Translations under genes and position numbers: made by a program
Notes under the pieces: generated by a model
Seen by the model: the letters and a program-made list of their open reading frames with translations, nothing else
Database searches by the model: none
What the model was told of the DNA's origin: nothing
NCBI GenBank assembly: GCA_016839585.1
Contig: JAEOTZ010000026.1
Location: 1 to 64,000 of the forward strand
Direction of reading: 5' to 3'
Origin: Promethearchaeota archaeon
GTDB lineage: Archaea; Asgardarchaeota; Lokiarchaeia; Sigyniarchaeales; SOKP01
Length of the DNA: 64,000 nucleotides
In this document: piece after piece, positions 3 through 7,431 of the stretch
Position numbering within the stretch: the stretch's first letter is position 1
Layout of the letters: the number at the start of each line of letters is the position of its first letter

Positions 3-1457
3 GTTCCAAGCGGAGCTGATTTCGATTTACATTTATATTCAAATGATCCTTCTTCTATAGGAGAACCTACTATGGTTGCTTCAAGCACACAATCTGGTTT
101 GGGAACGCAGGAAGTTATAATATATACGGCTGCAAGCACAGGTAAATATTATTTAATCGCAAAAGCAATTTCTGGTGAAGGAATGGCAAATATTTCTTAT
201 CCCATTATTGACCATGATTTAGGTGTTCAATTAGAAGTTCCAACTAATCCTGAGCTTTATTCTAGTTATACTGTCAATGCAACTATCTTCAATGCTGGAC
301 TAAATGATGAGACTGATGTCGATCTATTTCTTTATCTTAATGATGCACTTATAGATTTTACTACTATTCCAACACTTCTCGTTGGAACCAGTGAGACCAT
401 AAATTATATTTGGACCCCCGTGGATTATGGAAAACATAATTTTACTGCCTATACTCCAAGTGTACCCGGAGACCCAATAATATTAAATGATAGCGCAACT
501 GAACTAATAAGCATCTGGATGAATTATACCATGATCCTGGGAGTTCCGTATACTTGGATAGATGCCTCTGATGGAACGTCGATCTGGGTAGGTAATGAGG
601 GATCTGAGGAAGTATCCTTACCTTTTGATTTTCAATTTTACAATGAAACCTTTTCAACTATATACATAAGTGAAAATGGATATTTTAGTTTTGTCGATAC
701 AGATCCCGATGACTATTGGGAAATGGAATTTCCCTTGCCATGGCCTGAATATTCATATATGATTGCACCATTCTGGGACGATATAGATACCACTTTTGTT
801 GACATAAAATCATTTGGCCACTATTGGGTTGCAGAGTGGGAGAATGTTTATCATGGTGATGGTCCTAGCATTGGCACTTTTGAAGTAATTTTATATGATA
901 ATGGAGACATCATCTTTAACTATGATGATATTAACTATGTGGCAGATGGATATACTTGTGGATTAAATTTTGGACTAGATACAAGATATTATAATTATTA
1001 TCAAGGATTAGATGCTTCAACTAACGACTTTTCAATTAAATTTACTTTACCTGATTCTCTCACAGTTAAAACACCTCAGAGTTCTAGTTTGTGGGAAAAA
1101 GGGTCTTCTTATAATATCTATTGGAACTCAACAGGCACTATTTCTGATGTAAAGATTGAACTTTATGAAGGTGGTGTATTTGAAAGGGAAATTATTTCAA
1201 GTACGAGCAACGATGGTGTATTTTACTGGACTGTTCCCTCAGATCTAGATTATTCTACTCAATATCAAATAAAAATCACCGACATTTCTAATCCCCTTAT
1301 CAATGATTTCAGTGACTTTTTTGAAATAAAAAGTCCACCAAAGAAAAAGACAACAATTCCAGGGTACAACCTGTACTTCATAATCGGTGTAATTTGTGTC
1401 GTTTCTATGCTGCTAGCTAAAAAAAGAAACAGAAAACAATCTGGTTCAAATAAATAA
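3..1457 (+). CDS. 5'-truncated cell-surface protein (PPC-like, CARDB/Ig-like, nidogen-like, Ser/Thr-rich domains) with Loki-CTERM tail; possibly C-terminal part of a secreted peptidase
   Basis: Frame is open from base 3 (VPSGADFDLHLYS... before the ATG at 72), so the gene starts upstream of the window. PPC-like DFDLxLY, CARDB-like 'HDLGVQLEVP..VNATIFNAG', NIDO-like 'IAPFWDD', and C-terminal IPGY + hydrophobic helix + KKRNRK. Confidence 0.75.
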   Translation, partial: VPSGADFDLHLYSNDPSSIGEPTMVASSTQSGLGTQEVIIYTAASTGKYYLIAKAISGEGMANISYPIIDHDLGVQLEVPTNPELYSSYTVNATIFNAGLNDETDVDLFLYLNDALIDFTTIPTLLVGTSETINYIWTPVDYGKHNFTAYTPSVPGDPIILNDSATELISIWMNYTMILGVPYTWIDASDGTSIWVGNEGSEEVSLPFDFQFYNETFSTIYISENGYFSFVDTDPDDYWEMEFPLPWPEYSYMIAPFWDDIDTTFVDIKSFGHYWVAEWENVYHGDGPSIGTFEVILYDNGDIIFNYDDINYVADGYTCGLNFGLDTRYYNYYQGLDASTNDFSIKFTLPDSLTVKTPQSSSLWEKGSSYNIYWNSTGTISDVKIELYEGGVFEREIISSTSNDGVFYWTVPSDLDYSTQYQIKITDISNPLINDFSDFFEIKSPPKKKTTIPGYNLYFIIGVICVVSMLLAKKRNRKQSGSNK

Positions 1458-1494: not shown

Positions 1495-1533
1495 AAGTAT
1501 AACCAATCTCTTAAAATTAAGTATAACCAATCT
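1495..1533. repeat. 15-bp direct repeat AAGTATAACCAATCT
   Basis: Copies at 1495-1509 and 1519-1533. They duplicate the last codons (IGYT) of the NUDIX remnant. Confidence 0.85.
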
Positions 1534-1615
1534 TTAATTGTTTCAACAGCTCTATCATAGAATCTGTTAGCTCATAATTTTTTAATTCTTCATAGGGGAC
1601 AAATTTTGCTTTTAA
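1517..1615 (-). pseudogene. Orphan 3'-end fragment of a NUDIX hydrolase allele
   Basis: Minus strand reads LKAKFVPYEELKNYELTDSMIELLKQLKIGYT*, 22/32 aa identical to the end of the NUDIX CDS at 2445-2915 (LVAKFVHFDDLKNYKLTESLIELLKQLKIGFK*). No start codon or 5' part. Confidence 0.85.
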
Positions 1616-1717
1616 CGTAGATTAAACATAAATTTTATAATATTAATCTATAAAAAAAATCACTAACAAATAAATAAAAATAATCGTGATCAATTATAGA
1701 GAGACAGTGAACATTTA

Positions 1718-2368
1718 ATGAAAGAAAATAAACTATGGTCAGAAACGGAACTTTTTGATTTTAAGAAAAGATGGAAAGCAGTGACTATTCCTGTTAACGT
1801 ACAAATTGAAAATAGACAAATTGCCTTAGATTTGACTAGAACCAATCGTATTATAGAGCAAGCAGAAAAAATAGCTTTAGGGGATTGTGTCTGTCGGGTT
1901 ACTCTTGGAAATTGCAACATGCCACAGAATACTTGTATATTCTTAAATAAGCGGGCAGAAACATTTGTTGAAAATGAAAATAGACGAGCTAAATTTATAA
2001 CTCAGGAACAGGCAAAAACTATTGTTTCTGAAACTCATAAAAAAGGATTAGTTCACTTAGCGTTACATCAATCAAATGAAACTGATCGATTCCCTTCTGA
2101 AATATGTAGTTGTTGCTCCTGTTGCTGTCAAGCACTTCAGGGATTACAAGTAATGAATATGAAGGGAGTTGTAGAACCCAGCGAGTTTGTAGCTACTTTC
2201 GACTTAGAAAAATGTAATCAATGTGGTATATGTGTCGATCGATGTCAATTTGGAGCAAGAATATTTGATTCTAAAAAAAAAATTATTTTTTACCAAGATT
2301 TATGTTTTGGTTGTGGTCTTTGCGTAACCACTTGTCCTGAAAAATTAATAGACCTAATTCCAAGATAA
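1718..2368 (+). CDS. 4Fe-4S dicluster (ferredoxin-type) protein with Cys-rich N-terminal domain
   Basis: CVCR...C...C, ICSCCSCCC, then CNQCGICVDRC and CFGCGLCVTTCP motifs. Confidence 0.85.
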   Translation: MKENKLWSETELFDFKKRWKAVTIPVNVQIENRQIALDLTRTNRIIEQAEKIALGDCVCRVTLGNCNMPQNTCIFLNKRAETFVENENRRAKFITQEQAKTIVSETHKKGLVHLALHQSNETDRFPSEICSCCSCCCQALQGLQVMNMKGVVEPSEFVATFDLEKCNQCGICVDRCQFGARIFDSKKKIIFYQDLCFGCGLCVTTCPEKLIDLIPR

Positions 2369-2444
2369 TTCGATATTTACAATTATTGCTAATACTTTGA
2401 TAAATTATGAAAATATTAAATGGGTTAATTATAAAAAAAAGTTA

Positions 2445-2915
2445 TTATTTGAATCCAATTTTTAATTGCTTTAAAAGTTCAATTAAAGATTCAGTTAATT
2501 TGTAATTCTTCAAATCATCAAAATGTACAAATTTTGCTACTAAAGCATCATCATCAGCTTTAGGGGGTTGATTGGCGTCTCCTTCAATTTGTTCTACAAA
2601 ATAATTTATCAAAACATAGTGATATTCGATTTTTCCTTTATCATCGTACATAATTTTATCAATTATCCCTGCTAATTTTGCTACTTTCACTTTAAAGCCT
2701 GTTTCTTCGAAGCCTTCTCTTTCAGCAGCAGACTGTACTTTTTCACCAAGATCTAAATGACCCCCTGGAATTGACCAATATCCGGCATCTGGATCAAATT
2801 TTCTCTTAACTAATAATAAGTTTTTATCCCTAACAAGAAGGATCCCAACTCCAACATGAGGTCGTACAGGATATTTTCTTGTATCAAATGCAGTTAATTT
2901 TTCTCTATCTACCAA
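2445..2915 (-). CDS. NUDIX hydrolase (ADP-ribose pyrophosphatase-like)
   Basis: Nudix box GGHLDLGEKVQSAAEREGFEETG; PxVGVG N-terminus; 'HYVLINY'. Confidence 0.9.
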   Translation of the reverse strand: MVDREKLTAFDTRKYPVRPHVGVGILLVRDKNLLLVKRKFDPDAGYWSIPGGHLDLGEKVQSAAEREGFEETGFKVKVAKLAGIIDKIMYDDKGKIEYHYVLINYFVEQIEGDANQPPKADDDALVAKFVHFDDLKNYKLTESLIELLKQLKIGFK

Positions 2916-2995: not shown

Positions 2996-3496
2996 GTGAA
3001 CAATTTGGTGCGCCCATGGTATTGGCCAGAAGAAGGACAACCTGATAGAACAGAATCTTTTACATGGATCGTTAAAGGTAAATTAGCGGCTTCTTGGTGG
3101 CCTGATTCTAAACTAATTGAGAGATATAAAAAGGAAGGAATAAAAGTCATAATCAATTGTTCGGAATTTGATAATCAAAAGGATCTATCTAAAGATTTCA
3201 CCTATTTTCATATAAATATCCCGGATTATGGAACCCCTACAGATGCCCAATTAGAAAGATTTTTCAATATTACTAATAAACATGGAGATAATAGAGAATC
3301 TATGGTAGTGCATTGTGTAGCAGGCTGTGGGAGAACGGGCATAATGGTTGTAGCATGGGCAGCTCATAATGGATTTATTCCTGATGATATTGATCCAGTA
3401 AGTTGGATTCGAAAGTTAAGACCATGCAGTTTAGAATCAAAAGAACAAATGGATCTGGCTCGTAAAATAGCTAAAAAATATAAGAAAAGAGAATAA
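2996..3496 (+). CDS. Dual-specificity/tyrosine protein phosphatase
   Basis: CX5R loop VHCVAGCGRTG, acid loop IPDYGTP, 'IRKLRP..ES..Q'. Confidence 0.9.
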   Translation: MNNLVRPWYWPEEGQPDRTESFTWIVKGKLAASWWPDSKLIERYKKEGIKVIINCSEFDNQKDLSKDFTYFHINIPDYGTPTDAQLERFFNITNKHGDNRESMVVHCVAGCGRTGIMVVAWAAHNGFIPDDIDPVSWIRKLRPCSLESKEQMDLARKIAKKYKKRE

Positions 3497-3515: not shown

Positions 3516-4127
3516 TTACTTTTCCTCTTTAGCAATAGCTAAAATAATTATCATTAATAAATTAACCAAATCTTCATCAGAGCCAAACATATTTCTGTAA
3601 TAAATGTGTCGATGAATTATAGCATCAACTGCTTGTAAAATAATTTTTTCTTTTCTTTCAATATTAAAATTGCTTTTTTTAAATTTTTTTGCTGCAATGA
3701 TTATTGGTTTCATTATTATGTCAATTTCAGGTTCAAGATATTCAGATAATTTAAGATAAGAATCCATATTTGAGATGATTTCTATTTCCATTGCAATAGA
3801 AAATTCTCGAAACTTACGATGATTATCTATATTTCGATATAATATTGCTTTAAGAGCCTCAGTGAAATTATCAAAATCATCAACAGAAAAAAACCTTTCT
3901 ACCTCTAAGTTTTGCATAGATTTCTTAAATATTATTTTCAAAATTTCAGATTTCCCATTTTTAAAATGATAAAATAAAGTTCCTGGACTTATTTCCGCAC
4001 TTCTGGCAATTTCTCTCATGCTTATATTGCTATATCCCTTTCTAGTTATTAAATCTGTTGCTACTCGTATAATATGATCTCTTGTAGAGTGTTCTATCTT
4101 TTTTTTCTCCTTTAAGTTTGAGTCCAT
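3516..4127 (-). CDS. TetR/AcrR family transcriptional regulator
   Basis: N-terminal HTH 'GYSNISMREIARSAEISPGTLFYHFKNGK'. Confidence 0.92.
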   Translation of the reverse strand: MDSNLKEKKKIEHSTRDHIIRVATDLITRKGYSNISMREIARSAEISPGTLFYHFKNGKSEILKIIFKKSMQNLEVERFFSVDDFDNFTEALKAILYRNIDNHRKFREFSIAMEIEIISNMDSYLKLSEYLEPEIDIIMKPIIIAAKKFKKSNFNIERKEKIILQAVDAIIHRHIYYRNMFGSDEDLVNLLMIIILAIAKEEK

Positions 4128-4161
4128 ATATATTTAATAAGCTTCTAAAAATATAAATTCA

Positions 4162-4288
4162 TCGTTCATCGATCGAAAAAAAATACTTATAGGTGGATTC
4201 GATCATTGATCGAAATATTTAAATATTTATCTTTAATATTATATTATTGGTTGATCATTGATCGAGGAAAAAAAATGATCATTGATCA
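4162..4288. promoter_or_regulatory. Four palindromic operators (TCGATCA-T-TGATCGA consensus) in the divergent tetR/ABC promoter
   Basis: 4162-4176 tcgttcatcgatcga; 4198-4214 ttcgatcattgatcgaa (perfect); 4251-4265 ttgatcattgatcga; 4276-4288 tgatcattgatca (perfect). Confidence 0.85.
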
Positions 4289-4305
4289 AAGAGGTGTGAT
4301 AAAGT

Positions 4306-5034
4306 ATGATCTTGAATACAAAACAAACTTATTTTCAATTCGTTGCTAGAGATGTTAAAAAAAGCTATTGGACAGGCGATATAGAAATAAAAGCATTAGA
4401 CGGAATAAGTTTAAAAGTTGCAAAAGGGGATTTCAAAATGATACTAGGACCATCAGGAAGTGGAAAAACAACATTGATGAATATTTTAGGAGGATTGGAC
4501 TCTGCAGATTCAGGAGAAATAATAATTAATCTTGGTAATGGAAAGTTTAAGGATATTAGAAAATTCACGAAAAATGAGTTAACAAATTATCGTAGAATGT
4601 ATATTGGAATAATTTTCCAATTTTATAATCTAATTCCAATCCTTACAGCTTTGGAAAATATTGAATTAGCTGCAAGATTTTCGGGGATTTCTAATCCTAA
4701 AAGAAAATCTAAAGAATATTTATCTGAATTAGGTCTTGGAGATAAGTTTAATCGATACCCAAATCAACTTTCTGGAGGAGAACAACAGAGAATTGCAATA
4801 GCTCGTGCTTTAGTTAAAGATCCTGCTCTTATACTAGCTGATGAACCTACAGGTAATTTAGATTCTGTTAAAACAAACGAAATTTATAAGATTCTGAAAA
4901 AATTGTCAGAGGATTACAATAAAACTATATTAATAGTGACGCACGATGAAGATATGGCAAATAAATATGCAAAAGAGCATATTCACATTAAAGACGGTAG
5001 ACTTATAAGAAACCAGGAGAAAATAGAGAGGTGA
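4306..5034 (+). CDS. ABC transporter ATP-binding protein (LolD/MacB-like)
   Basis: Walker [17 protein letters not shown] signature, [15 protein letters not shown]. Confidence 0.95.
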
Positions 5035-5040
5035 AATTCT

Positions 5041-7431
5041 TTGAAAAAGATTTCTATATGGTTTATATGGAAGAAAGCTTATAAAACTCTTTTAAAGAAT
5101 AAACGTAAAACAATCCCAGTTATCATTTTACTAACTTTCTCTATTGGATGTGGAACTATACTATTTGACGTTCAAGATATCAGGAGTAGAGTTGTGGAAG
5201 AAATAATTGAAAAAACAAATTTCGCAGACGGTTTTGTATATCTTGAGCCACTTCCAGAAATTTTGGTATCTCAACTTATAGAAGATGAAATTTTCCAATA
5301 CTTAGAGGATTATGAGTTAAATATGATTGTTACTTCAAAATTTGTAATTCTAGGAGAAGATTATGATGGTATTTTAGTTGGCATAAATGTATCAACAGAA
5401 AAGCGTATAAATAAATTAATCAATGAAAAGAAAGAAGAGATTCAGGATTATGAATTTGCTATTAATTGGGCATTTGCTGATGCCAATAATATTAAATTAG
5501 GAACTGAAATATTGGTCTCCTATGGTTCTTATGAAATATTATTAGAAATACAAAATATAGGATATAATCCTGAATTTCAATTCATGCCTTTGTATAGAAA
5601 TATTGCTTTTCCTTCTATTAGACCTTATCCAGTGTTATATGTAGATAAATTTTTTTTAAGTAACACCGTTTTGAATCATTCAACAACCCTAGTAAATTAT
5701 TTTGTGTACAAATTGAAAGACCAAGACAATAAACAAATCGTAAAAGAGAAAATTGAACTTATTCTTGGTGATTATATTAATCAGCAATTTTCACAAGAAC
5801 AGCATCCTTTTGTTAAAACAATGAGAGAGGATGAGAAAAATGATCGGAGCTTATTTTTATTTCTTACAATTATCCTATTGAGTGGAGCCATAATCACATT
5901 AATTTTAGTAACGAATAAATTAGTAGAGGATGATCTGAAATCAATCTCAGTTTTTCAAGCATTAGGAGCAAATAGAAAAGAAATATTAGCGAATTTCCTA
6001 GTTTTTAACATCCTTTTAATAAGTTGTTCTCTATTGTTGGGCTTATTGTTTAGTATAGGTTTTAATATTCCAATAAACAATTTTATGATGGATGCTTTGA
6101 GTATACCATTCGATCTTAGTATAAGTATTTCAATTAAAAATCCACTTTGGATTGGACTAATCTTATTTGGGGTATCGATTCTCTCCACATTGTTTATTGT
6201 AAAAAGAACCTTTAAAATGGATGTTCAACAGACAATGAAATATGAGACTAAATTTTTAGAAAAAATAAATATTATAGAAAAAATTTATCGAAAACTGAAA
6301 AAGAACCCACATCCCTTAGCAAAATATAATATTAGAAGAATTTTCGGCAAAAAATTACATTTGGCTTCTTTAATTTTAGCTCTTAGCTTTTCTGCTTCAT
6401 TAATCATTTTCACTTTCTCTTTTCCAGACAGTATAAAATACTCAATAAATCGGCAGTTCAGTGAAATTGAAAAATGGGATTGTTATGCTAATACTTGGCA
6501 ATATGAAGATGTATTACTAATGAATTCATCATTAAGCTCTATAGAAGAGCTTACTCAATATGAATTTGGTATTTCTGATTCCATTCTTTTCTCTAAAGAC
6601 AACAACAGTGAATTTAAAAAGACATTTAAATTAATGGCATATGAAGATAATTCAGAATTACATGTGATAAAAGTTGAAAAAGGAAGATTTTTTGAGGATA
6701 TTGATGATGTTATTGTTTCAAAAGATATGATTGAGAAATATGATCTAGATATTGGAGATATTATTTATGTTAAAAGTATAGGATTAGAAACGATATACCA
6801 ATTAGAAATTGTGGGCTTAGTAAACGATTTAACTGCCTTAACAATATATCTAATGATGCCGAAAGCTCAAACTATATTGAATAAAACAAATAAAATTAAC
6901 ACGATTTATTTCACTTCTGACAATATAGATATCTGTGTGGAAAAAGTTCAAAATATTCCTCAAGTTGAAATTGTAGTAAAAATGAGCACTTTAAGAGAAG
7001 ATCTTGAATACGTCTTACAAATGATTTCTTCTCTTTTCATTGTGTTTGGATTAGTCTTTCTTTTCTTTGGAGTACTTCTTTTACTAATTATTTTTAAATC
7101 TAATATTGATTATCGCATAGAAGATTATAGCAGCATGAAAGCAATCGGGGTATATAATTCAGAAATTAAAAAAAGTTTAATATATGAATTAACATTTTAT
7201 TTTGTTGTTTCTTTATTACTTGGCTTCTTTTTAGGGGAATTAATATCTAAGTTAATAATCTCTATGTACTCATCAATTATGCCTGGAATCCATTATCATC
7301 TATATTCAATTAGTTACATCTATTATATTGCGATTTTTGGGATTATTATATTAATATCATTTTTAATTAACAATCGAAGAGTTAAAAAAGTCAATCTAGC
7401 AAAAATAATGAGAGAGAAAACATTTGGTTAA
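5041..7431 (+). CDS. FtsX-like ABC permease (duplicated MacB/FtsX architecture)
   Basis: Two repeats of TM + large extracellular domain + 3 TM with 'ALGA'/'KAIG' FtsX motifs; 6 bp downstream of the ATPase; GGTGA RBS before TTG. Confidence 0.88.
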   Translation: MKKISIWFIWKKAYKTLLKNKRKTIPVIILLTFSIGCGTILFDVQDIRSRVVEEIIEKTNFADGFVYLEPLPEILVSQLIEDEIFQYLEDYELNMIVTSKFVILGEDYDGILVGINVSTEKRINKLINEKKEEIQDYEFAINWAFADANNIKLGTEILVSYGSYEILLEIQNIGYNPEFQFMPLYRNIAFPSIRPYPVLYVDKFFLSNTVLNHSTTLVNYFVYKLKDQDNKQIVKEKIELILGDYINQQFSQEQHPFVKTMREDEKNDRSLFLFLTIILLSGAIITLILVTNKLVEDDLKSISVFQALGANRKEILANFLVFNILLISCSLLLGLLFSIGFNIPINNFMMDALSIPFDLSISISIKNPLWIGLILFGVSILSTLFIVKRTFKMDVQQTMKYETKFLEKINIIEKIYRKLKKNPHPLAKYNIRRIFGKKLHLASLILALSFSASLIIFTFSFPDSIKYSINRQFSEIEKWDCYANTWQYEDVLLMNSSLSSIEELTQYEFGISDSILFSKDNNSEFKKTFKLMAYEDNSELHVIKVEKGRFFEDIDDVIVSKDMIEKYDLDIGDIIYVKSIGLETIYQLEIVGLVNDLTALTIYLMMPKAQTILNKTNKINTIYFTSDNIDICVEKVQNIPQVEIVVKMSTLREDLEYVLQMISSLFIVFGLVFLFFGVLLLLIIFKSNIDYRIEDYSSMKAIGVYNSEIKKSLIYELTFYFVVSLLLGFFLGELISKLIISMYSSIMPGIHYHLYSISYIYYIAIFGIIILISFLINNRRVKKVNLAKIMREKTFG

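Follow-up and report, generated by a model that had tools for sequence, protein, structure and literature searches.

Apparent insertion of a 4Fe-4S protein gene and a foreign gene end into a NUDIX hydrolase gene of a Promethearchaeota archaeon

Introduction

Integrative and mobilizable elements (IMEs) and cis-mobilizable elements (CIMEs) are found in the 3' ends of housekeeping genes in streptococci and other bacteria (PMC5704250). An insertion of related appearance was seen in a stretch of 64,000 nucleotides (nt) from a Promethearchaeota archaeon (GenBank assembly GCA_016839585.1), hereafter the window, which forms the start of one contig (C8; JAEOTZ010000026.1) of a 3.45-Mb genome in 91 contigs (G000) and provides all coordinates given below. 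In the window, a NUDIX hydrolase gene carries a foreign 3' end, and downstream of it lie a gene for a 4Fe-4S protein (the Fe-S gene) and an orphan copy of a NUDIX 3' end. As with IMEs and CIMEs, the insert lies within a conserved gene at its 3' end, supplies a replacement end that keeps the gene intact and leaves the old end as a direct repeat on its far side, and CIMEs also lack an integrase. The locus differs in that no cognate integrase was found in the genome or its relatives, that breakpoints vary between events and that the repeats are alleles of ~70% identity rather than near-identical attachment (att) sites. In addition, the replacement end does not always accompany the cargo, only one ordinary gene is carried, and scars of this kind are found in many unrelated genes.

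Campbell-type insertion-duplication, in which a non-replicating circle integrates by homologous recombination, is known mainly as a laboratory tool for gene disruption that relies on near-identical homology of hundreds of bases. Its product has a topology identical to that of the locus, with the target segment duplicated around the insert, and is reversible, whereas the event described here would be a natural one that proceeded through a 12-17-bp identity block between ~70% identical alleles. A limited search found no literature on natural Campbell-type gene acquisition in archaea, which is no proof of novelty.

The products of homology-facilitated illegitimate recombination (HFIR) usually lack the recipient DNA between the two junctions. 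HFIR has been described in naturally transformable bacteria and in conjugation of E. coli (PMC3240628). It resembles the locus in that foreign genes are gained without an element-encoded enzyme, through DNA of which one end finds homology in a conserved gene and the other is joined illegitimately. It differs in that here the recipient tail is kept and nothing was lost, presumably owing to the position of the illegitimate joint, which coincides with the homologous one or lies slightly upstream of it.

The minimal mobile elements of Neisseria are gene cassettes between conserved flanking genes which are swapped by transformation and homologous recombination. They share with the locus the placement of single accessory genes at fixed places by conserved genes through host recombination and without a recombinase of their own, but they have two homologous flanks and no duplicated gene end, compared with one flank and an orphan tail here. 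Integron cassettes are likewise one-gene, promoter-proximal units of about 0.75-0.9 kb added to the chromosome; in contrast, the insert has no attC-like fold, lies inside a coding end, and the sole tyrosine recombinase of the genome is distant (contig C35).

The mobile elements described in Asgard archaea include viruses and tRNA-targeting transposons with giant genes (PMC8813620), and plasmids and large transposon-like elements have been reported besides viruses (PMC8813620, PMC11529989); the extracts of these two reports mention nothing like this type of insertion. Little is known about gene gain and exchange in Asgard archaea, and the locus offers a fully resolved before-and-after picture with the empty site present in two sister species, in which a single gene was added without a mobile-element enzyme and with the target gene unharmed.

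Native and foreign 3' ends of the NUDIX gene

The intact gene (2445-2915, minus strand) encodes a NUDIX hydrolase of 156 aa (Pfam PF00293, E=1.6e-20). The orphan tail (1517-1615) lies 0.83 kb downstream of it on the same strand and comprises codons 125-156 plus the stop codon as an open frame without a start codon or gene body; it was also recovered within the genome by a profile built from 28 orthologues (E=5.6e-11). Its translation (LKAKFVPYEELKNYELTDSMIELLKQLKIGYT, followed by a stop codon) is identical to that of the working tail (ALVAKFVHFDDLKNYKLTESLIELLKQLKIGFK, followed by a stop codon) at 22 of 32 residues, and the nucleotide identity of the two tails is 70-71%. The repeat finder pairs 1516-1615 with 2444-2543 as direct repeats of 100 nt, which are 71% identical and have a spacing of 928 nt. 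The two copies share the 12-mer ACAAATTTTGCT at 1599-1610 and 2527-2538, and the ~0.93 kb bracketed by it holds solely a 216-aa 4Fe-4S open reading frame (ORF) and the current NUDIX tail. A first-pass annotation of the window, made from its letters alone, had described the orphan with its 22 of 32 identical residues, the two 12-mer copies and the content of the stretch between them, and these features were recovered unchanged.

NUDIX orthologues with 71-92% amino acid identity occur in ~40 of the 54 genus genomes, where the gene of a dual-specificity phosphatase (PTP) usually adjoins them (PTP-NUDIX pairing in about 20 genus genomes), and the names given to homologues in databases are Asgard ones (Promethearchaeota, Hodarchaeota, "Loki_b32"). 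An Fe-S gene was present at none of the roughly 30 NUDIX loci first inspected. The closest relative by the NUDIX gene is the genome G063, which is colinear with G000 from the surface-protein gene to window position 1615 (90.7% identity) and again from 2455 through the NUDIX and PTP genes (88.8%). Both colinear blocks overlap on the single NUDIX tail of G063, so that G000 is exactly 928 bases longer. In the other of the two closest genomes, G032, the single NUDIX gene at the site ends in ...KIGYT and a stop codon, and 53 nt separate it from the end of the orthologous surface-protein gene. The empty site that the first-pass annotation had predicted, with a NUDIX gene ending in KIGYT beside the surface-protein gene, thus exists in both genomes. 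The homology of relatives to the orphan region begins at TTAAA[A/G]GCAAAATTTG (~1616) and extends through the intergenic DNA into the surface-protein gene.

Identity along the NUDIX gene is not uniform. Between G000 and G063, nucleotide identity is 0.94 over codons 1-94 and 0.92 over codons 95-123, and falls to 0.76 over codons 124-155. The orphan, by comparison, has identities of 0.93 with the tail of G063 and 0.91 with that of G032, which is the level of the flanks. In a three-way alignment, G063 matches the intact gene up to AGCAAAATTTGT and the orphan thereafter. The max-chi2 breakpoint falls after nt 389 of the coding sequence (CDS), the final base of the 12-mer, with 24 mismatches in the 389 positions to its left and 22 in the 76 to its right, and its chi2 was reached in none of 5000 permutations (p<0.0002). 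The second 12-mer copy (2527-2538) therefore marks the allele switch point of the intact gene, and the stop codon with codons 131-156 (2445-2526) forms the foreign tail, here called B'-type, as delimited by the drop in identity to G063 and by the breakpoint.

Between the two tails, the proportions of synonymous and non-synonymous differences (pS and pN) are 0.93 and 0.15 (17.5 of 18.8 synonymous and 11.5 of 77.2 non-synonymous sites; Nei-Gojobori), and pS between the NUDIX bodies of G000 and G063 is 0.18. Since silent sites are saturated between the tails, these are old diverged alleles and not a decayed local copy, in line with the earlier proposal of two orthologous alleles. A decayed local duplicate was excluded as the origin of the orphan, which by its identity to G063 and G032 is the native tail. 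The orphan and the G063 tail are separated by 2 synonymous and 5 non-synonymous changes; the resulting omega of about 0.6, based on few sites, fits with relaxed constraint.

Tail types were also compared among 120 database NUDIX orthologues. The closest bodies, P0136-P0140 and P0144 (116-119 of 123 residues; 94-97%), carry A-type tails, and LKAKFVPYEEL, as in the orphan, recurs in the tail of P0144. Tails of the B' type (VAKFV[HY]FDDL...GFK) belong to the full-length proteins P0139 and P0149, the bodies of which are 89-90% identical with ~12-14 differing positions. A degenerate B' tail pattern matched no other species representative.

The 12-mer encodes a nearly invariant A-K-F-V motif (in the orphan, at 1599-1610) which is conserved in most NUDIX orthologues, and its identity alone therefore marks no recombination core. 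Of the 12-bp core proposed by the first-pass annotation, the position holds, as the breakpoint lies at the end of the 12-mer; a dedicated att core is made unlikely by the conservation of A-K-F-V and by an orphan in G032 which starts at codon 95.

The comparisons show the ancestral order, namely PTP, NUDIX with the KIGYT tail and surface-protein gene, as kept in G063 and G032. To this a 928-bp segment was added inside the NUDIX gene at about codon 125, with nothing deleted. The added segment comprises the last ~30 codons of a strongly diverged NUDIX allele, 12 nt, the convergent 4Fe-4S gene with a short putative promoter region and 71 nt. Judging from the aligned sequences, the working NUDIX gene is a mosaic of native body and foreign tail which kept a complete reading frame, and the orphan is its native tail, left downstream and apparently non-functional. 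The mosaic identity and the 928 additional bases relative to G063 also agree with the earlier suggestion that a foreign tail and an Fe-S gene were added with the host gene remaining intact.

Layout of the locus

The order of features is a 438-aa gene (minus strand), the surface-protein gene (plus), the orphan tail (minus), the Fe-S gene (plus), the NUDIX gene (minus) and the PTP gene (plus). The surface-protein gene, which is the native neighbour of the original NUDIX tail, is present with its 3' part (3-1457, plus strand) and encodes CARDB, NIDO-like and Kre9/KNH-like domains (Pfam) and a C-terminal membrane anchor. Its 5' start is found on contig C59, the end of which overlaps the start of C8 by exactly 127 nt, and the same gene continues across.

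The 15-mer AAGTATAACCAATCT at 1495-1509 and 1519-1533, which had been noted in the first-pass annotation as well, is a perfect direct repeat with 24-nt spacing (1495-1533) that re-copies the final codons of the orphan (IGYT). It represents a 24-nt tandem duplication seen in G000 only and absent from the alignments of G063 and G032.

Within the inserted DNA, an AT-rich spacer of 71 nt (1617-1687) separates the orphan from the Fe-S unit. It has no homology to G063, G032 or the other contexts of the Fe-S gene, and the 54 genus genomes gave AT-rich noise only.

The Fe-S unit itself (1688-2432, plus strand; Pfam, NCBIfam) is a self-contained gene unit of 745 bp, which consists of 30 nt upstream, the ORF at 1718-2368 and 64 nt downstream, with limits taken from the flanks of the metagenome contigs described below. 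The ORF encodes a protein of 216 aa, the N-terminal half of which is rich in Cys and which also has a 2x[4Fe-4S] ferredoxin domain. The TATA-like AATTATAG at ~27 nt before its ATG is inferred to be a putative promoter element. Twelve nt (2433-2444) separate the unit from the NUDIX stop codon. On the other side of the NUDIX gene, the PTP gene (2996-3496, plus strand; Pfam) is the conserved neighbour and served as synteny anchor.

The Fe-S unit in other contexts

Two metagenome contigs, L081 (Ga0114925_10311699) and L101, carry the Fe-S gene at 95-97% nucleotide identity in different flanks and without a NUDIX tail. L081 matches window positions 1688-2087 and has a truncated NMO-like ORF upstream, while L101 matches 2250-2432 and diverges 12 nt before the NUDIX stop codon. 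The conserved DNA of L081 is at most 85% identical to that of any genus genome and so comes from a different species, and organisms that share the Fe-S unit at 95-97% are otherwise only ~80-85% identical. An identity of 95-97% across species that are at most 85% alike means that the 745-bp unit has recently moved between species, with the NUDIX tail not always along. As the Fe-S gene is found in other contexts without the NUDIX tail, the combination of tail and gene is no fixed cassette. The one-gene cassette of the first-pass annotation is thus retained in the sense that the insert holds a tail plus the Fe-S gene, and given up as a fixed unit.

Fe-S proteins with 98% identity exist in the protein database, and orthologues with 62-72% identity are present in 9 of 161 genomes of the class, G000 included. 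When aligned, the Fe-S orthologues of G061 and G036 share the coding sequence alone with G000.

The motif AATTAT stands at both ends of the Fe-S unit (1688-1696, 2426-2432) in all three contexts, that is, in G000, L081 and L101. It could be due to chance in AT-rich DNA or could be a hint of the unit's own movement. On L081, a 46-codon N-terminal fragment of the NMO-like ORF (L081:555-695) stops exactly where the Fe-S unit starts, and could represent a similar scar of a different organism, here with an orphan "head". Another stretch of ~200 nt on L081 (131-336) is conserved in 27 or more of the other 53 genus genomes, with identities of 75-85%, and was not found in G000. This stretch has no Rfam or tRNA match, and may represent an undescribed RNA or a conserved gene end.

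Search for mobility functions

The insert (1617-2444) encodes the Fe-S protein only and no recombinase, as the first-pass annotation had held for the locus, and its neighbours are surface-protein, PTP, TetR and ABC-transporter genes. One tyrosine-recombinase match (PF00589) was found in the whole genome, on contig C35. No recombinase-bearing element was seen next to the NUDIX gene in about 40 inspected loci of the 54 genus genomes.

Hallmarks of transposons, insertion sequences or miniature inverted-repeat transposable elements are missing, as the repeat finder detected no terminal inverted repeats at the insert ends, and the ends of the Fe-S unit have no other copy in the 3.45-Mb genome. No attC-like hairpin was found; the flanks fold no better than shuffled DNA (z +0.35 to +1.05). 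Neither a tRNA or tmRNA gene nor an Rfam family was detected at the insert, and IMG/VR viral contigs contained no relative of it.

Similar scars in other genes and genomes

The genome G032 has an orphan NUDIX fragment of its own, which comprises codons 95-155, ends in ...KIGYD and a stop codon, and is associated with other cargo (L066:7206-7291 together with L064:1-201, at the end of C76 and the start of C25; the contigs overlap by exactly 77 nt). It sits behind an 833-aa surface-protein gene and before the genes that succeed NUDIX in most relatives. As this orphan starts at codon 95, compared with codon 125 in G000, the 12-mer is not a fixed att core. A mosaic test of the G032 duplicate against the sister genome G029 gave no clear pattern.

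For a genome-wide scan, which the first-pass annotation had put forward as a means of counting such scars, the C-terminal 45 aa of each of 2869 crudely called ORFs (100 aa or longer) were compared by tblastn with the whole of one genome, G000, and matches were kept when they lay outside called ORFs, within 10 kb and at E<=1e-6. On the strand of the intact gene, 15 orphan tails were found downstream and 3 upstream, whereas the opposite strand had none. When full-length proteins were compared with their downstream regions, the C-terminal part only was matched, except at C87, where a weak paralogue also matches, and every orphan fragment ends at most 7 aa from the C-terminus. The cargo between intact genes and orphans is made up of ordinary accessory genes, including those for CARDB/solute-binding, Ras-family GTPase, PIN-domain, beta-propeller, FMN reductase and SBP_bac_5 solute-binding proteins, and contains no recombinase gene. 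On these grounds, the same process appears to have acted at about 14 other genes of G000, which suggests that it is an everyday route of accessory-gene gain in the group.

Clean empty sites in sister genomes were found at two further loci, on contigs C82 and C30. The C82 scar (C82:5652-8148; L132:1153-3649) consists of an AAT/C45-like gene with a foreign tail, a convergent gene for a 279-aa Ras-family GTPase and a native orphan of 35 codons. G029, which has the empty native site, resembles the intact gene up to the orphan start and then continues with the orphan and its downstream DNA: the informative sites are intact-like (I) 22 times and then all but one orphan-like (O). In G063, the "foreign" tail is present without cargo and turns orphan-like about 20 nt before the stop codon. 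In G032, the same gene has different cargo (a gene for a 278-aa membrane protein) and an orphan of 15 codons.

The C30 scar (C30:18674-21725; L131:1675-4726) consists of a DUF3795 gene, a convergent gene for a 705-aa CARDB/binding protein and an orphan of 69 codons. Cargo occupies this site in G029 as well, whereas G063 and G032 have the empty site. Cys-to-Phe changes and an in-frame stop codon are common to the G000 and G029 orphans. The lone copy of G063 resembles the intact gene over its 5' half and the orphan over its 3' half, with the pattern OIIIIIIIIOIOOOOOOOOOIO. This reciprocal mosaic was considered as proof of a circular intermediate and dropped, as G000 and G029 have decay mutations in common in their orphans and the pattern is explained equally well by a deletion in G063.

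Further tail-only fragments on the same strand, 0.2-4.6 kb downstream, were found at C53, C89, C67, C20 (two), C63, C40, C7, C90, C61 and C68; for C53, C89 and C67 the sister genomes are too rearranged for clean empty sites. At C68, two fragments stand in series behind an RNase H-like gene which is multi-copy in relatives. At C61, two neighbouring genes have a copied tail and a copied head between them.

Mechanism of insertion

The observations narrow the mechanism to a host-mediated, homology-anchored insertion that adds DNA without loss. We favour host break repair or template switching, in which a foreign tail and the Fe-S gene were copied from a homology-anchored end and joined illegitimately to the break end, and hold this explanation with belief and doubt in about equal parts. 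The donor would have been a different lineage of this group, with the Fe-S unit placed 12 nt behind a B'-type NUDIX gene, and the agent would be the host's own recombination and repair machinery, with no element-encoded enzyme. Following a break or stalled fork near codon 124/125, the end of the NUDIX body would pair with the foreign allele at the conserved A-K-F-V block, and synthesis would copy the foreign tail and the Fe-S gene. Because the tails are only ~70% identical, the new strand would be unable to re-anneal to the other end, and its connection to the break end would be made by illegitimate or microhomology joining.

The product of such an event would have the topology of a single-crossover (Campbell-type) insertion. 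This topology is observed, in that the single G063 tail aligns to both repeat copies and the switch from native to foreign lies at the repeat. A single break would account for the coincidence of the orphan start (CDS nt ~373) and the allele switch (nt 351-392), which lie within about 20 nt of each other, as is also the case at C82, and copying from a break would leave an orphan that reads as one continuous native haplotype. Whatever the insertion model, the flanking diverged repeats can later recombine and delete the cargo, and this accounts most simply for the recombinant single tails of G063.

Several points weigh against break repair as set out here. The proposed donor arrangement, a B'-type NUDIX gene followed by the Fe-S gene, was not found among the 161 class genomes, where the Fe-S gene lies beside NUDIX in none of the 8 other genomes that have it. 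The sharp ends of the Fe-S unit, common to differing contexts, are not explained by the model and hint at discrete movement. If V126 is native, as in P0137, the two copies share 17 nt, and a clean break predicts no overlap. The junctions were read from assembled contigs.

The overlap of 17 nt would in turn be expected, if V126 is native, under a Campbell-type alternative, which we regard as possible yet doubtful. Here, a circle of ~0.93 kb with foreign NUDIX codons 125-156 and the Fe-S gene would have entered by one crossover of the host's homologous recombination in a 12-17-bp identity block, and the same repeats would permit excision as a circle, so that the module could cycle and spread. 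The topology is matched exactly, with direct repeats of one target segment flanking the insert and the allele switch at the identity block, and the single tails of G063 at C30 and C82 look like reciprocal recombinants of intact gene and orphan; such tails in sister genomes, however, are accounted for by direct-repeat deletion whichever way the insertion arose. A circle would also require a NUDIX fragment that starts just 8 nt upstream of the crossover block, and this coincidence recurs at C82. Moreover, the orphan with its LK...PYEEL is a continuous native haplotype like that of P0144 and not a donor 5' part joined to a native 3' part, the Fe-S unit is found elsewhere without the tail, and no circle was observed in the assembled data.

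A broader form of the circle model is a recombinase-free, homology-addressed cassette system, in which a gene end serving as "address tag" and one accessory gene would excise as small circles through recombination of the diverged repeats, move from lineage to lineage and be re-inserted by host recombination at the same conserved gene. We think it unlikely. If true, accessory genes for surface proteins, Ras-family GTPases, redox proteins and PIN toxins would shuffle across species, and mosaic 3' ends would be footprints of repeated cycles of insertion and excision; circles, if they exist, would be a new kind of host-dependent mobile cassette. Orphan gene ends could serve as datable markers of gene gain in metagenome-assembled genomes, and mosaic 3' ends of conserved genes may mislead single-gene phylogenies.

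Compared with break repair, a decayed site-specific element is very unlikely. Such a CIME-like element would have targeted the 3' end of the NUDIX gene by a tyrosine or serine integrase, carried the new tail in its attP and later lost everything but the Fe-S gene. Restoration of a 3' end with the old end as attR is typical of many IMEs, integrative and conjugative elements and proviruses (PMC5704250), and two independent orphans are present at the same gene (G000, G032). These orphans start at different codons (125 and 95), however, and the sole identical "core" is the invariant AKFV motif. An integrase is found neither in nor near the insert, with the sole PF00589 match of the genome on C35, no recombinase element occupies the site in any of the 54 genus genomes, and no relative was seen among IMG/VR viral contigs. 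With about 14 other scars in unrelated genes, one recombinase would be unable to target all of them.

It is hardly probable either that the locus formed in two steps, by an exchange of the NUDIX tail that left the orphan and a later, separate insertion of the 745-bp Fe-S unit 12 nt behind the stop codon. This explanation draws on the unit's own sharp limits (1688 and 2432), its 95-97% identity within other flanks and the AATTAT at both of its ends in three contexts. The intermediate with a B' tail and an orphan and without the Fe-S gene is, however, present in none of the genomes compared, the unit ends are unrepeated in the genome and have no terminal inverted repeats or hairpins, and two rare events would be needed within one 100-bp stretch.

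A local origin from a decayed tandem NUDIX paralogue, or a chimeric contig from two strains, is extremely improbable: the locus lies 1.5 kb from a contig start in a metagenome-assembled genome and direct repeats can also come from tandem duplication, but tandem full-length NUDIX genes occur in none of the 54 genus genomes (which excluded a paralogue remnant), the orphan is nearer than the working tail to the orthologues of sister genomes, whereas decay would have had the opposite effect, the two copies are saturated with silent differences, the same architecture is present in the independently assembled genomes G032 (NUDIX) and G029 (C30, with shared inactivating mutations), and a chimera is very unlikely because the overlaps that join contigs measure 127 nt, against a maximum of 17 nt that the junction has in common with NUDIX.

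Genomic neighbourhood

Between the PTP gene and a 387-aa gene, the window contains a TetR regulator gene and two ABC-transporter genes (3516-7431). In several relatives (e.g., G036, G020 and G013) the phosphatase and 387-aa genes are adjacent or nearly so, and in G032 a large surface-protein gene takes the place of the TetR and ABC genes. The whole neighbourhood is a variable zone.

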